The position numbers were made by a program, and so were the translations under genes. Below, piece after piece: positions 531 to 39,896 of a DNA stretch of 64,000 bases. Positions within the stretch are counted from its first letter, which is position 1; each line of letters begins with the position of its first letter. The stretch spans positions 1,312,001 to 1,376,000 of the forward strand of contig CAVQMM010000001.1 in NCBI GenBank assembly GCA_963713615.1. Direction: 5' to 3'. Source of the stretch: an uncultured Chlamydiae bacterium (GTDB lineage: Bacteria > Chlamydiota > Chlamydiia > Chlamydiales > JAJFMA01). The notes below the pieces were generated by a model. The model did no database searches and was not told where the DNA came from. It was given only the letters and a program-made list of their open reading frames with translations.

Positions 531-1118
531 GAGGTAATTGCAGAAGTCCGATTTTCCGAATTCAATTTCCTGAAAGTCGGATGCCGGTGAAGAGAGAGCC
601 ATTCCCTTCCCAGGCCCGAAGGGTCGATAATGCAACAGGCCATGGCATCGCCATGGTATATGCCAAAACGGTTTTAGCAGCCTGTAGGGCTGCCATAAAG
701 CGCATGCATAAATGGTGTTTGTAAACTGGCGTCTTGTAGCAGTCCTTCAGACTGCGAAATCCCTTCCTGGCATATACCATGGCGATGCCACATAGGCCTC
801 AACCTAACAGGTCTTTTGAGCTTATATCTCAATGACTTAGGACTTCACAATCGTATCTCGGCGCGCAGCGCTTTGGAGTGCGGTCGCTTGCGACCGCTTT
901 TCGTTCCTTGGGACGGCAATGCTAAACGGCATTGTATGGATTCGTCGAAGGCTGCATGTACTAACTATTTTACCCTTAGGGAATTATAGTAATGCCGTTG
1001 CACACGACCGTCGCAAGGAACCCAAAGCGGTCGCAAGGTAAGCGTCAATTGAAGCCACCTTTTTCGTAATTCCGCGAGGTTCTAAGTTTTCTCCATGACC
1101 CTAACCATGGAGATACTA

Positions 1119-1676
1119 ATGGATTTCAAAAGGAAGCGTTCTGAGTGGGCTCGACGCATAGACCAATGGATGGCGAGCGGTCAGAGTGGCCGCAGGTGGT
1201 GCCTAGAGAACAATATAAGCTACCAGCAGCTCTTGTACTGGTACCAACGCTTTAAAGTTAGCCCGCCCGACCACATTTCCTCGACGGGTTGGATAGACAT
1301 TACCCTGCCCGAGCTCAAGCTTTCGCTTGATCAGAAGAGCGTCTATCTAACCCTAAAGTCTGCGAGCAAAACTCTGAGGTCGTCATATCAGAAAAACAAG
1401 GGTGTCTTTCTCTATCAAGAGCCGATCGATATGCGAAAGGGATTTGAGTGCTTGAGCAATCTTGTTGACAGTTCGTTCTCGGGCGAATTTACCTGCGGGG
1501 CCTACTTCGTTTTTTTAAATCGTCGTAGAAATCTAGTGAAGGTCTTTTACTGGGATGGTAATGGTCATGCCGTCTGGTACAAGCGACTTGAAAAAGGAAG
1601 TTTTCGCAATGGAAGCATTCCAGATTCCGCTATCGATCGTCGAGAATTTCTAATGTTGTTGGAGAGTAGTCATTGA
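1119..1676 (+). CDS. IS66 accessory protein, TnpA-TnpB fusion
   Basis: N-terminal W...SGQS...WC.....S...L.YW (TnpA-like HTH) in frame with DMRKGF..L...FVF.NRRR..VK..YWDG.G...WYKRLEKG.F (IS66 TnpB); GGAG before ATG 1119. Confidence 0.85.
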   Translation: MDFKRKRSEWARRIDQWMASGQSGRRWCLENNISYQQLLYWYQRFKVSPPDHISSTGWIDITLPELKLSLDQKSVYLTLKSASKTLRSSYQKNKGVFLYQEPIDMRKGFECLSNLVDSSFSGEFTCGAYFVFLNRRRNLVKVFYWDGNGHAVWYKRLEKGSFRNGSIPDSAIDRREFLMLLESSH

Positions 1677-1720
1677 GCCTAAAATCCTAAAAACAATGTG
1701 CATTTTATTAGATAAAATAC

Positions 1721-1749
1721 TTGATAATAGAGGGGGTCTGTGATATGAT
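1721..1749 (+). promoter_or_regulatory. sigma70/sigma66-like promoter for tnpC (same sequence at 37829-37857)
   Basis: TTGATA-17 nt-TATGAT ending 9 nt before the tnpC ATG; no obvious Shine-Dalgarno. Confidence 0.55.
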
Positions 1750-1758
1750 TTAGAGCAT

Positions 1759-36902: not shown

Positions 36903-37226
36903 CCATAAGAGGTAATGCTACCCATTCTGGTCAGAGTATAAATGGACTTTATGAGGTAATTGCAGAAGTCCGATTTTCCGATGTCAATTTCCTGAAAATC
37001 GGATGCCGGTGAAGAGAGAGCCATTCCCTTCCCAGGCCCGAAGGGTCGAGATTGCAACAGGCCATGGCATCGCCACATAGGCCTCAACCTAAGCCTAACA
37101 ATCGTATCTCGGCGCGCAGCGCTTTGGAGTGCGGTCGCTTGCGACGTAAGCGTCAATTGAAGCCATCTTTTTCGTAATTCCGCGAGGTTCTAAGTTTTCT
37201 CCATGACCCTAACCATGGAGATACTA

Positions 37227-37790
37227 ATGGATTTCAAAAGGAAGCGTTCTGAGTGGGCTCGACGCATAGACCAATGGATGGCGAGCGGTCAGAGTGGCCG
37301 CAGGTGGTGCCTAGAGAACAATATAAGCTACCAGCAGCTCTTGTACTGGTACCAACGCTTTAAAGTTAGCCCGCCCGACCACATTTCCTCGACGGGTTGG
37401 ATAGACATTACCCTGCCCGAGCTCAAGCTTTCGCTTGATCAGAAGAGCGTCTATCTAACCCTAAAGTCTGCGAGCAAAACTCTGAGGTCGTCATATCAGA
37501 AAAACAAGGGTGTCTTTCTCTATCAAGAGCCGATCGATATGCGAAAGGGATTTGAGTGCTTGAGCAATCTTGTTGACAGTTCGTTCTCGGGCGAATTTAC
37601 CTGCGGGGCCTACTTCGTTTTTTTAAATCGTCGTAGAAATCTAGTGAAGGTCTTTTACTGGGATGGTAATGGTCATGCCGTCTGGTACAAGCGACTTGAA
37701 AAAGGAAGTTTTCGCAATGGAAGCATTCCAGATTCCGCTATCGATCGTCGAGAATTTCTAATGTTGTTGGAGAGTAGTCATCGAGCCTAA
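37227..37790 (+). CDS. IS66 TnpA-TnpB fusion
   Basis: as copy 1 but two codons longer (CGA where copy 1 has TGA). Confidence 0.85.
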   Translation: MDFKRKRSEWARRIDQWMASGQSGRRWCLENNISYQQLLYWYQRFKVSPPDHISSTGWIDITLPELKLSLDQKSVYLTLKSASKTLRSSYQKNKGVFLYQEPIDMRKGFECLSNLVDSSFSGEFTCGAYFVFLNRRRNLVKVFYWDGNGHAVWYKRLEKGSFRNGSIPDSAIDRREFLMLLESSHRA

Positions 37791-37866
37791 AATCCTAAAA
37801 ACAATGTGTATTTTATTAGATAAAATACTTGATAATAGAGGGGGTCTGTGATATGATTTAGAGCAT

Positions 37867-39411
37867 ATGGAAACCTCAACACTATCACTAGAACATCTTC
37901 AATCGGAAATTTATTCCCTGCGAAATGAGAATAGCTTTCTCAAGGAGCAGCTTGAATGGTTTAGGCGTCAGATTTTTGGGAAACGTTCGGAAAAAGTAGT
38001 CGACGATGGCGGTCAACAACTCTACCTGGAAGGTTTCGAAAATCTTGGTTCCGAAGAGCAAAAAGAGACAATAAATGTGCCTGCTCATCGACGGGTTAAG
38101 CAGGGGCGCAATGGCAAAGATAAAATTACGCTTCCAGACAATATTCCCGTTCAACGCTGTATTTTAGATTTGCCAGAGGATCAAAAAGTTTGCCCTACAA
38201 CGGGTGAAGCCCTCGTCAAAATTGGCGAAGAAGTCACTCACAAAATAGCGCATACGCCAGGTAGCTACTACGTCAAGGAGCTAGTACGTCCCAAGTATGC
38301 ATGTAGAGCACATAGTGAAGAGGGCGTTTTTATCGCAGATTTACCAGATAGCATTTTTCCTCGCTGTCAAGCCGATGAGAGTCTTTTAGCCAGTGTGATC
38401 GTGAAAAAATTCGCCGATCACCTTCCTTTATTTCGTCAATCGGAAATCTTAGCTCGCGAGGGCATTCTCATCAGCCGACAAATACTTTGCAAGTGGGTAA
38501 TGCGCTGTGGATATGCCTTAAAGCTGCTATATGAAGAAATGATTGCTCGCGTGCTCAGCAGCAACAATGTTTTTGTGGACGAATCTCCTGTGGACATGCT
38601 TGTCCCTGGTAAGGGAAAGGTGCACCAGGCTTTTATGTGGGTGATCGTTGGAGGGCAGGAAAAAAATCCGCCTTATCGAGTCTATCATTTTCGCACGGAC
38701 CGCTGCCACAAGCATGCTGTGGAAATACTAGCTGGATATAAAGGTGTTGTCCATTCGGATAAATATGGAGCCTATGAAGCACTGGCTAATAAGAAGCAAT
38801 TCACTTGGTGTCCATGCTGGAGTCACATTCGGCGCAAGTTTTTCGACGCTGTAGGTGGCGATAAAAAATTTGTTAGCTGGGTACTGCGCAAGATAAAATA
38901 TCTATTTATGTTAGAGAGAGTTGCTTGGGAACGTTCTCCAGAGGAACGCCTGCGGATAAGACAAGAGAAAGAAGCTCCAATAATAGATGAGCTGACTGCA
39001 CGCATCAAGGACCGGCTGGTTAATGGCAAGGCTCTTCCCAAATCGAATCTAAGGGAGGCTCTAGGCTATTATTGCAGCTTAATTCCCCATCTGAAAAACT
39101 ACACCCAACATGCATTTGCGCGTCTCGACAACAATGTAGCGGAGCGAGCGATACGCCCTCTAGCTATTGGCCGCAAGAACTGGATGTTTATTGGAAGCGA
39201 GGAGGGTGGGGAAGCTTCCGCCGTACTGCTAAGCCTGGTACAGACCTGCCGCGCGATAGGAGTCAACCCCCACGAATACCTAGAGGATGTGATGAGGCGC
39301 CTGCCAGCCCATAATTCTCAAAAACTTCACGAGCTTCTGCCCGACGCTTGGGCTGCCGCCAGGCGACAAGCAAAGGCCTCATCCACCTCATCAGCCCCCA
39401 CTGCCGAATAA
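37867..39411 (+). CDS. tnpC: IS66 DDE transposase TnpC
   Basis: 514 aa, differs from copy 1 at two residues seen (EQL/EHL, KAL/KLL). Confidence 0.97.
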   Translation: METSTLSLEHLQSEIYSLRNENSFLKEQLEWFRRQIFGKRSEKVVDDGGQQLYLEGFENLGSEEQKETINVPAHRRVKQGRNGKDKITLPDNIPVQRCILDLPEDQKVCPTTGEALVKIGEEVTHKIAHTPGSYYVKELVRPKYACRAHSEEGVFIADLPDSIFPRCQADESLLASVIVKKFADHLPLFRQSEILAREGILISRQILCKWVMRCGYALKLLYEEMIARVLSSNNVFVDESPVDMLVPGKGKVHQAFMWVIVGGQEKNPPYRVYHFRTDRCHKHAVEILAGYKGVVHSDKYGAYEALANKKQFTWCPCWSHIRRKFFDAVGGDKKFVSWVLRKIKYLFMLERVAWERSPEERLRIRQEKEAPIIDELTARIKDRLVNGKALPKSNLREALGYYCSLIPHLKNYTQHAFARLDNNVAERAIRPLAIGRKNWMFIGSEEGGEASAVLLSLVQTCRAIGVNPHEYLEDVMRRLPAHNSQKLHELLPDAWAAARRQAKASSTSSAPTAE

Positions 39412-39896
39412 ATCGCCAGATGGCCTCAATTGACGCTTACCTTGCGACCGCTTTGGGTTCCTTGCGACGGTCGTGTGCAACGGCATTACTATAATTCCCT
39501 AAGGGTAAAATAGTTAGTACATGCAGCCTTCGACGAATCCATACAATGCCGTTTAGCATTGCCGTCCCAAGGAACGAAAAGCGGTCGCAAGCGACCGCAC
39601 TCCAAAGCGCTGCGCGCCGAGATACGATTGTGAAGTCCTAAGTCATTGAGATATAAGCTCAAAAGACCTGTTAGGTTGAGGCCTATGGGGCGATGCCATG
39701 GCCTGTTGCAATCTCGACCCTTCGGGCCTGGGAAGGGAGAAAAGCCTGTCTTTCCAGACAGGATAGTGCCATACCATTTAAGCTCTCCAGAATCGCCTTC
39801 TCACAAAAAAAAGTGATTTTTTTCCAAAGAATCGATCCATGAGAGCCCAAATACTTCTGCAATTACCTCTTATGGACAGAGGTCCATTTTTGTTCA

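Follow-up and report, generated by a model that had tools for sequence, protein, structure and literature searches.

Copies of an IS66-family element lie at one octamer of a REP palindrome in a Chlamydiae genome

Results

Two IS copies in opposite orientation relative to their REP cassette

The window, that is, the whole stretch of DNA analysed, comprises 64,000 nt (CAVQMM010000001.1, positions 1,312,001-1,376,000); all coordinates are given in window numbering. It contains two copies of an insertion sequence (IS), each enclosed by an 8-bp target site duplication (TSD), and two unoccupied REP doublets (Table 1). The octamer that flanks both copies is contained in the palindrome GCGGTCGCAAGCGACCGC; in either case it occupies nucleotides 4-11 of the 18-nt palindrome GCGGTCGC-AA-GCGACCGC, within the arm that follows GGAACCCAAA. 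Both copies of the IS run forward in the window, while the flanks of the two loci are inverted (arms 777-1060/39418-39701 and 3310-3436/37042-37168); thus, the IS points opposite ways relative to the cassette. The two copies differ at 7 of 2,295 positions, and the block common to both loci measures 2,660 bp (777-3436; 37042-39701). Homology of the flanks extends for no more than 262 bp at one end of the insertion and 99 bp at the opposite end, which means that the host repeats of the two loci differ. Core 14977-14991 represents, without an insertion, the site that both copies occupy. A sequence-only reading of this DNA had described reverse-complementary TSDs in one and the same REP arm, opposite IS directions, several base differences between the copies, differing host repeats, and a visible empty site; all of this was reproduced.

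Table 1. Position of the IS copies, their genes and duplications, and the empty REP sites in the window
Feature	Position	Strand	Remarks
Empty REP core	883..897	-	class b partner arm of doublet with IS copy 1
Left TSD of IS copy 1	1030..1037	+	GTCGCAAG, REP palindrome positions 4-11
IS copy 1	1038..3332	+	IS66 family, 2,295 bp; same direction as REP cassette
ORF1 of copy 1	1095..1676	+	193 aa; TnpA-like residues 9-54 fused to IS66 TnpB/Orf2 domain, residues 104-191
tnpC of copy 1	1759..3303	+	514 aa; DDE transposase, Pfam domains
Right TSD of IS copy 1	3333..3340	+	GTCGCAAG, then CGACCGCACTCC
Unoccupied REP doublet (REPIN-like)	14797..15027		two 87-nt inverted arms, 57-nt spacer
Core of this doublet	14833..14847	-	empty, partner arm
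Core of this doublet	14977..14991	+	empty, same arm type as the occupied sites
Second unoccupied REP doublet	32399..32629
Core of second doublet	32435..32449	-	empty, partner arm
Core of second doublet	32579..32593	+	empty, same arm type as the occupied sites
Left TSD of IS copy 2	37138..37145	+	CTTGCGAC, complement of GTCGCAAG
IS copy 2	37146..39440	+	2,295 bp; direction opposite to REP cassette
ORF1 of copy 2	37203..37790		195 aa
tnpC of copy 2	37867..39411
Right TSD of IS copy 2	39441..39448	+	CTTGCGAC
Empty REP core	39581..39595	+	class b partner arm of doublet with IS copy 2

The element is a member of the IS66 family

The TnpC domains, TnpB, the GTAAGCG ends, and the 8-bp duplications place the element in the IS66 family; all four features are shared with the canonical members IS66 and IS679 and with the sister elements described below. 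TnpC matches PF03050 (DDE_Tnp_IS66) with an E-value of 1.5e-83 and additionally contains zf-IS66, LZ_Tnp_IS66, and DDE_Tnp_IS66_C (Pfam). The TnpB_IS66 domain of ORF1 (PF05717, E 3.5e-25) belongs to a part that is 57% identical to TnpB of a relative, and the preceding TnpA-like part (E 7e-7) is fused to it in frame. ORF1 is therefore a TnpA-TnpB fusion, as the sequence-only reading had assumed; the separate small tnpA that relatives possess upstream of tnpB is absent here. Since the ISBst12 group of the family is described as likewise deviating from the standard gene set (PMC12898284), the fusion does not rule out IS66 membership. Repeats of 8 bp are tabulated for two IS66 members in Table 2 of PMC3281130. 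The ends of the IS (GTAAGCGTCAATTGA... and ...TCAATTGACGCTTAC) match at 20 of 22 terminal positions, are identical over 15 bp, and start with GTAAGCG, as do the ends of the relatives. Non-coding DNA amounts to less than 170 bp, and Pfam revealed no extra domain in the IS proteins that accounts for specificity.

The target is a REP with a RAYT

A short palindrome, a high copy number, and a RAYT gene identify the target repeat as a true REP. Its core is an 18-nt GC-rich palindrome, which is left empty in 347 copies. The RAYT gene reaches 83.7 bits against the NCBIfam model NF047646 (cut-off 80) and is flanked by two cores on one side and three inverted cores on the other. For 342 of 374 cores an inverted partner lies 132-143 bp away. 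The single REP hairpin folds at -8.7 kcal/mol, with the octamer forming the inner 5' half-stem plus the loop, and the inverted doublet at -109 kcal/mol. Thus equipped with hundreds of GC-rich palindromes, mostly in inverted doublets folding into a long hairpin, and with a single RAYT gene that has inverted REPs on its flanks, the genome resembles known REP/REPIN-RAYT systems. Beyond these likenesses, the doublets lie in larger mosaic repeats, and the 18-mer was not found in the 12 relatives searched (3 of the same genus).

Seventeen of 18 genomic copies occupy the same octamer

The genome (3.97 Mb) contains 18 full-length copies of the IS, which are at least 99.7% alike. Seventeen have the flanks AAAGCG/GTYGCRAG/CGAC; in these, the IS runs in the same direction as the REP in 11 cases and in the opposite direction in 6. 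The exact repeats abutting the IS are 8 bp long at 17 of the 18 copies and 151 bp long at one. Three repeat contexts are occupied, each by both IS orientations (occupied versus empty sites: class a 9/76, class b 3/93, class c 4/160), and once the IS is removed, the reconstituted sites are the same as the 347 empty ones. The octamer GTYGCRAG sits 2 bp off the palindrome axis, invariably on one side. With about 364 such positions in the genome, 18 random insertions would be expected to yield about 0.002 hits, versus 17 seen. Given that all copies but one occupy these 8 bases, in either direction, the element likely aims at the REP sequence; that insertion is target-directed is near certain. The sequence-only reading had arrived at hairpin- or sequence-directed targeting from the two window copies, and the flanks of all genomic copies, which show one octamer of one palindrome in both orientations and several contexts and only one copy elsewhere, support it.

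The class-a arm contains a second GTCGCAAG 20 nt upstream (window 1010-1017), which serves as the target in none of the class-a copies; consequently, the octamer by itself is insufficient. The choice among REPs followed none of the properties compared at a significant level: neither perfect versus bulged stems (13/215 vs 3/128) nor class a versus class b (9/76 vs 3/93, p 0.07) differed significantly in use, and AA versus GA loops showed a trend that was not significant. There was no replication-strand bias, the forward strand being the leading one at 10 of the 17 occupied sites and at 170 of the 343 sites that are empty.

Independent origin of the insertions

The same distribution might have arisen if a chance insertion into a REP doublet, or a small number of them, had been spread by doublet movement or gene conversion, with in-place inversion of the IS via its 15-bp ends and no specificity at all. 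The repeats around the sites are numerous, with a similarity of 85-100% over 100-600 bp, which makes them a substrate for conversion, and the somewhat more frequent use of class a than class b fits as well. This origin is nevertheless highly improbable, as both orientations occur in three contexts that have at most 0-73 bp of common flank. For 13 of 16 occupied sites, the best match of the site-spanning flanks is an empty copy and not another occupied one; two of the remaining three are each other's best match, yet carry the IS in opposite orientation. Six IS copies that are 100% identical to copy 1 fall into four distinct context and orientation classes (a-same, a-opposite, b-same, and the GTTGCGAG variant), and the occupied sites are interspersed among the 347 empty copies. 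These findings establish the insertions as independent; equally, they lend no support to the rival origin considered in the sequence-only reading, a duplication of one composite followed by inversion of its IS. Some of the nine class-a insertions could stem from gene conversion between repeats, and counting one event per class and orientation gives a firm minimum of about seven separate insertions. Even seven hits on one octamer in 4 Mb far exceed chance, and the footprint-like site and the 151-bp duplication described next represent further events at the same octamers.

Three unusual sites

One IS copy is bordered by an exact duplication of 151 bp, which reaches from octamer to octamer across the two arms of a doublet and ends at the CGAC-side cut of each arm. 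As both borders are normal REP cuts, one per arm, the event resembles two aimed half-reactions and not a random second hit. Alternatively, the duplication could have resulted from recombination between two alleles with the IS in different arms; the sequence of this IS copy is a mosaic of haplotypes. An empty site, unique in the genome, reads AAAGCG GTCGCAAG T GTCGCAAG CGAC and looks like an excision footprint. At the single copy outside a REP, CGAC directly follows the duplication as in the REP sites (p 0.003). This copy sits in the arm of a long palindrome with a folding energy of -45 kcal/mol, which 4 out of 3,000 randomly chosen positions attain (p about 0.001). Beyond CGAC its site is not alike when scored with a PWM (left flank p 0.34, far right flank p 0.38), and a CAAAG match seen by eye was not upheld by this test.

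Sequence, shape, and the question of what is read

If the complex recognised not the bases but a hairpin or cruciform extruded by the REP or by the entire inverted doublet, the geometry of the stem-loop would fix the position of the insertion. The location of the octamer in the inner half-stem and loop of the REP hairpin, the palindrome around the non-REP copy, and the fact that all 17 occupied cores belong to inverted doublets folding at -109 kcal/mol speak for this possibility; the last point is not significant, since 342 of 374 cores lie in doublets anyway. We regard recognition of shape as possible, albeit rather unlikely, as the explanation: An off-axis site on a constant side of a near-perfect palindrome, combined with free IS orientation, signals that something asymmetric is read. 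Moreover, the GTTGCGAG/CGACGCGC variant site is occupied although it does not fold into the REP hairpin, and the missing replication-strand bias counts against single-strand hairpins on one template strand. The data point to a contribution of both sequence and DNA shape; the two are inseparable here because every occupied REP is at once conserved sequence and part of a palindrome. Insertion guided by single-strand hairpins in the manner of IS200/IS605 was rejected, as the IS has no Y1 domain and shows no replication-strand bias.

Sister elements do not share the specificity

A second IS66 element of the same genome, IS-B, is flanked by the duplications GTTGAAAG, GTCTTTCC, ATTGATCT, and GTAACAAC, none of which lies at a REP (4/4 clean junctions). 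The duplications of relatives from genomes G006 and G023 and from a Chlamydiae MAG are GGCAAGAC, ATGCTGAA, GCCGAAAA, AAAACATC, and AGTGTTTT. Taken together, 9 of 9 clean junctions of sister elements are at unrelated sites; REP specificity thus belongs to the 2,295-bp IS and not to its sisters, and no other element was found inside the octamer in this genome. In the sisters tnpA, tnpB, and tnpC are separate genes, unlike the one 193-aa frame of copy 1 in the site-specific element. Their insertion sites fold at -10.9 to -33.4 kcal/mol in 140-nt windows; two of the eight values are rather low, and these two stem from other genomes without a matching background.

IS-B also bears on a reading in which the IS proteins do not read the site and the RAYT or another REP-bound host protein recruits the complex. 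A cognate RAYT gene is present, and an asymmetrically bound protein could set the position and leave the IS orientation free. Such tethering is quite improbable, because REPs do not attract a related IS66 element that resides in the same cell; a tethered IS would still require a specific adaptor. We know of no such interaction between an IS66 element and a REP-bound protein.

A search for the same IS elsewhere yielded a top TnpC identity of only 62% in GTDB genomes, nucleotide identities of at most 68% among 40 relatives, and a single 65-bp match in plasmids; the closest relatives were found in Chlamydiae-type MAGs. The metagenome contigs contained one of 2.8 kb, the flanks of which stem from two different loci of this genome and which is probably an assembly collapse. 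In eight metagenome runs, which may include this very species and do not count as independent evidence, the IS of copy 1 is present at an identity of at least 99%, with few junction pieces, all of REP type. Because metagenome contigs break at repeats, new sites or an empty allele of the copy 1 locus are not demonstrable from them.

No indication of RNA guidance

REP-targeting elements of the IS110 family use IS-encoded RNAs (PMC11208160, PMC11187229), and an RNA pairing with the REP might choose the target here as in IS110/IS1111. We consider this extremely improbable for an element that has an IS66 DDE enzyme, makes 8-bp duplications, and contains less than 170 bp of non-coding DNA. The longest word shared by IS and target on either strand measures 8 nt, a length reached or exceeded in 174 of 200 shuffles. 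The same DDE domains and duplications and the chance-level complementarity refute membership in IS110/IS1111, elements with a DEDD enzyme, no target duplication, and a guide RNA. Mimicry of an IS end by the target was rejected as well: GCAAGCGAC and GTAAGCGTC match at 7 of 9 positions, but 378 of 500 shuffles equal that.

Discussion

Judging from the distribution of the sites, we deem it rather likely that the IS's own transposition proteins recognise the REP core and set both staggered cuts there, which would explain 17 of 18 copies. A symmetric transposase complex with two near-identical IS ends would be blind to left versus right, and the orientation would consequently be free. The position would be fixed by an asymmetric feature of the REP, probably sequence adjoining the octamer on its CGAC side, within DNA that is palindromic or can extrude a hairpin, and the second cut would fall 8 bp away on the other strand; the basis for a CGAC-side feature is a single off-target site together with the single 151-bp duplication. 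Candidates for reading the site are TnpC and the unusual TnpA-TnpB fusion. Landing in REPs would allow the element to multiply without gene breakage.

A more elaborate version, which we consider unlikely, has each IS end pick its own target via a one-sided CGAC determinant. At one REP, the outcome would then be the usual 8-bp duplication in either orientation; in a doublet, where two determinants face outward, these could instead capture the ends separately and produce the exact 151-bp duplication. The fusion, being absent from the non-specific sisters, would be the specificity module. Integration of one end at a time, as carried out by DDE transposases and retroviral integrases, leads to long duplications or deletions. 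The 151-bp duplication resembles such events, but differs in that both borders are at normal REP cuts.

In their compilation of REP-specific elements, Tobes and Pareja (2006; PMC1525189) list targeting of REPs for the five families IS3, IS110, IS4, IS256, and IS5; IS66 is not among these. The elements named there are IS1397/ISKpn1 and ISPsy8 (IS3), ISRm22 (IS4), and IS621, ISPpu9, ISPpu10, ISPa11, and ISRm19. In agreement with what is described for these, nearly all copies of the IS studied here lie within a REP at a fixed position, the two flanks rebuild an intact REP in 17/18 copies, corresponding to the type 1 association of that paper, and a copy can have mismatched repeats after recombination, as reported there for some copies. 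The insertion point of ISRm22 is the palindrome axis, and its repeats measure 6 bp (PMC1525189), whereas our element makes 8-bp repeats 2 bp off the axis, on a constant side and with free orientation. The same source places IS621 in the IS110 family, which forms most of the REP-associated set; elements of that family rely on another type of enzyme together with a guide RNA, unlike this IS66 element. In the literature searched, the coverage of which did not extend to Han et al. 2001 and Gourbeyre et al. 2010, we came across no IS66 element described as specific for REPs or hairpins.

To our knowledge, the widespread IS66 family is not known for site specificity, and we know of no role established for its TnpA and TnpB proteins. 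The finding adds a sixth family to those exploiting REPs, and concerns a family the transposition mechanisms of which are termed insufficiently characterised in a 2026 paper (PMC12898284). It offers a natural comparison within one genome, near-absolute site choice versus a sister without any; the TnpA-TnpB fusion differs between the two, which is testable by swapping parts. If the fusion were indeed the specificity module, it would offer a ready means of directing a DDE transposase to new targets, and a small DDE system with a defined target of 18-40 bp may be of use in aimed insertion, provided that the determinant can be mapped. For the bacterium, the example shows a route by which an IS reaches 18 copies in a gene-dense 4-Mb genome, with REPs as safe landing sites.

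Insertion sites of the IS in the host genome

The genome of the host (GCA_963713615.1, here G000) comprises 3.97 Mb on three contigs, and the window corresponds to G000:C1:1312001-1376000. By means of BLAST, 18 full-length copies of the IS were detected, which are at least 99.7% identical. Seventeen of them occupy the site AAAGCG-GTYGCRAG-CGAC, i.e. the octamer GTYGCRAG within the 18-mer palindrome (core) of a REP family, whereas random insertion would lead to approximately 0.002 hits at such sites. The one exception is located at GTTACTAC-CGAC in unrelated surroundings. The sequences directly abutting the IS form an exact 8-bp direct repeat for 17 of the 18 copies and an exact 151-bp repeat for one copy. 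Relative to the REP repeat, the 17 copies point in the same (11) or the opposite direction (6). Based on the flanks, three classes of sites were distinguished: a (GGAACCC-), b (GGAACGA-), and c (CCCAAATCC-), the latter with a GA loop and often one additional base after CGAC; each class holds the IS in both orientations. In G000, 347 sites are left empty; the ratio of occupied to empty sites is 9/76 for class a, 3/93 for class b, and 4/160 for class c. We regard it as nearly certain that the IS inserts in a target-directed manner. A single doublet (two inverted cores) at C1:1677956-1682696, outside the window, contains two identical IS copies, one per arm and inverted, which have separate 8-bp duplications and are 151 bp apart.

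Both copies within the window start with GTAAGCGTCAATTGA, end with its complement, and differ from each other at 7 of 2,295 positions. Copy 1 is bordered on either side by the octamer GTCGCAAG, copy 2 by CTTGCGAC. The flanking repeats of the two loci (repeat arms I3 and I12) are mutually inverted, the IS is not; therefore, the copies lie in opposite directions relative to the flanking repeat. The block common to both loci has a length of 2,660 bp; the 2612 bp given in the sequence-only reading was not reproduced. Taking out the IS and one octamer restores AAAGCG-GTCGCAAG-CGACCGC, which occurs intact in the window, also in partner arms. Thus, the sequence-only reading was right in claiming two insertions at the same 8 bp in opposite orientations, copies differing at several bases, and a visible empty site. 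The observation is real, and the hairpin- or sequence-directed targeting deduced from it is supported by the flanks of all genomic copies, whose inspection had been proposed as a check.

Coordinates of the IS copies in the window, intact target sites, the RAYT gene, and the second IS66 element of G000 (IS-B)
Feature	Location	Strand or orientation	Remark
IS copy 1	window 1038-3332	direct with copy 2	2,295 bp
IS copy 2	window 37146-39440	direct with copy 1	2,295 bp
Intact AAAGCG-GTCGCAAG-CGACCGC	window 14977-14991, 32579-32593		empty site
Same sequence, partner arms	window 883-897, 14833-14847, 32435-32449, 39581-39595		intact
RAYT gene	G000:C1:3256585-3257175 (locus L110 786-1376)	minus	196 aa; NCBIfam NF047646; outside the window
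IS-B copies	G000:C1:1751219-1754079, 2885989-2888852, 3351155-3354015, 2373103-2375910, 2405453-2410035		

Independence of the insertions

The 16 simple occupied sites were rebuilt with 400 bp per side and compared with each of the 347 empty sites and with the remaining occupied ones. For 13 of them, the best site-spanning match was an empty copy. Two were mutual best matches, yet with opposite IS orientations, and one matched best an occupied site, with only 93%. Between occupied sites, flank homology ends at many differing distances. Moreover, six copies identical to copy 1 are found in the contexts a-same (3), a-opposite (1), b-same (1), and a rare GTTGCGAG variant (1). Judged by these comparisons, neither the propagation of a repeat together with its IS nor gene conversion can account for the pattern of sites. 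The empty-copy matches likewise do not support the duplication of one composite plus inversion of the IS, which the earlier reading had named as a possible refutation. When the events are counted most conservatively, by class and orientation, about seven separate hits on one octamer still remain; this finding and the 13 empty-copy matches make it highly improbable that the IS spread without any specificity.

The REP target and its putative mobiliser

The 18-mer occurs 345 times in G000 and was not found in 12 genomes of relatives searched, three of which belong to the same genus. Its folding energy as single-stranded DNA is -8.7 kcal/mol. For 342 of 374 cores, an inverted partner lies 132-143 bp away, the CGAC sides facing outward; these doublets look like REPINs. 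The doublet at window 14797-15027 forms a single long hairpin (-109 kcal/mol). An ORF was assigned to the REP-associated tyrosine transposases (RAYT) with 83.7 bits (cut-off 80). Two REP cores adjoin this ORF at one end and three inverted ones at the opposite end, at a spacing of 112-113 bp, which is the classical arrangement for a RAYT gene and the REPs belonging to it. Likely, this RAYT is the mobiliser of the REP family targeted by the IS.

The window contains further repeats. A large imperfect palindrome (7961-8352; 177-nt arms, 81% complementary, 38 nt apart), within which two palindromic units of 72 nt are found (8010-8081 and 8233-8304), has no relation to the REP family. A direct repeat of 160 nt, 100% identical, is found at 17139-17298 and 57314-57473, 40 kb apart; it belongs to a mosaic of repeat cassettes (20 direct, 40 inverted families) filling the intergenic DNA of the window.

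Recognition of the target

The octamer comprises positions 4-11 of the 18-mer and lies 2 bp off the axis, on the AAAGCG side every time. Because this side is fixed for either direction of the IS, the target appears to be read asymmetrically; a complex of two near-identical IS ends would presumably not sense the polarity of the IS. In every class-a arm seen, a second GTCGCAAG is located 20 nt upstream (window 1010-1017) and is never the one used, which argues that the octamer by itself is not sufficient. We consider it rather probable that the proteins encoded by the IS recognise the REP core; the principal determinant would be its CGAC side within the palindromic context, and the cuts would be placed 8 bp apart at the octamer. 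Tethering of the IS by a host protein, which would shift recognition away from these proteins, is improbable.

The off-target copy has CGAC right after its duplication (p 0.003) and is otherwise unlike REP. It lies within an arm of another long palindrome of -45 kcal/mol, a value reached by 4 of 3,000 random positions; therefore, it seems that the shape of the DNA, or palindromy in itself, also plays a part. Pure shape recognition, to which this copy would conform, is nevertheless unlikely: the GTTGCGAG site fails to form the local REP hairpin, yet it was used. Furthermore, the IS sites showed no bias relative to replication, which argues against hairpins being targeted in the single-stranded DNA of one template. 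No guide-like complementarity between IS and REP was detected, and the choice of the target by an RNA guide is extremely improbable. The idea that the target mimics an IS end failed its test.

The copy at C1:2277796-2280089, outside the window, is the one with the exact 151-bp direct duplication. The latter extends between the octamers of the two doublet arms, with an intact outer REP on either side. Given the usual DDE strand-transfer polarity, both borders would correspond to the CGAC-side cut of the respective REP, which is consistent with a pair of aimed half-reactions, each carried out by one IS end. A crossover of two alleles whose IS copies occupy different arms would also be consistent. 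This copy is a mosaic of haplotype markers and lacks 1 nt at IS position 1297. In addition, an empty REP at C1:~2333303-2333329 (minus strand; outside the window) reads AAAGCG GTCGCAAG T GTCGCAAG CGAC, which is unique in G000; the duplicated octamer resembles a footprint left by excision of the IS and would represent a further event at the octamer.

Identity and occurrence of the element

ORF2 (514 aa) contains the leucine-zipper, zinc-finger, DDE, and C-terminal domains of IS66; ORF1 (193 aa) has an IS66 TnpB/Orf2 domain at residues 104-191. The N-terminus of ORF1 resembles TnpA of a relative (E 7e-7), its C-terminal part TnpB of the same relative (57% identity, E 4e-35); the elements of relatives have three separate genes. 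By these matches, the IS belongs to the IS66 family and carries TnpA and TnpB as a fusion. The copy at C1:2345201-2347494 lacks 1 nt within tnpC (IS position 2063), and the gene is probably frameshifted.

According to the excerpts of Tobes and Pareja (PMC1525189) considered here, REP-specific IS are known in five families (IS3, IS110, IS4, IS256, IS5), mismatched repeats arise after recombination, and ISRm22 uses a 6-bp site centred on the palindrome axis. The overall pattern is alike; our element differs from those described in these excerpts by its IS66 affiliation, the off-axis 8-bp duplication, its free orientation, and the TnpA-TnpB fusion. No report of REP specificity in IS66 was found in the literature searched, which did not extend to Han 2001 and Gourbeyre 2010.

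In 17 metagenome studies of peat, soil, and bog, 20 runs contained the IS; contigs of eight of these runs carry it at 99% identity or above. The small number of junction pieces obtained conform to the REP type; the runs may represent the same species and are not independent evidence. The left flank of one 2,801-bp contig (L111/L112) resembles the locus at C1:3105453 (GTTGCGAG), its right flank opposite-orientation class-a loci (CTTGCGAC); most likely, this contig is an assembly collapse across IS copies. In a short contig of run X2, the 20 terminal bases of the left end (window 1038-1057) are joined to interior sequence of the right end, and another contig of this run shows the reverse join, involving the right end (window 3313-3332). 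These joins may stem from an end variant present in the population or from an artefact of the assembly graph.

Comparison with sister elements

IS-B has a length of about 2.86 kb and the ends GTAAGCGTCAATGCTAGCC, and is 70% alike to the IS over part of its sequence; an insertion of ~1.7 kb interrupts one copy, and two copies appear truncated. The four junctions that are clean show unrelated 8-bp sites (GTTGAAAG, GTCTTTCC, ATTGATCT, and GTAACAAC). The closest elements in other genomes, which are those of G006 (68% nucleotide identity), G023, and a Chlamydiae MAG (61% TnpC identity), are inserted at GGCAAGAC, ATGCTGAA, GCCGAAAA, AAAACATC, and AGTGTTTT. None of the junction sites of IS-B and of these relatives is a REP. 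Other types of elements were not found in the octamer: the 6 left and 15 right halves located away from IS junctions are point variants plus one footprint. Sister elements at non-REP sites and an octamer used by no other element thus indicate that REP specificity is a property of this IS rather than of the whole family or of a site that attracts insertions in general.
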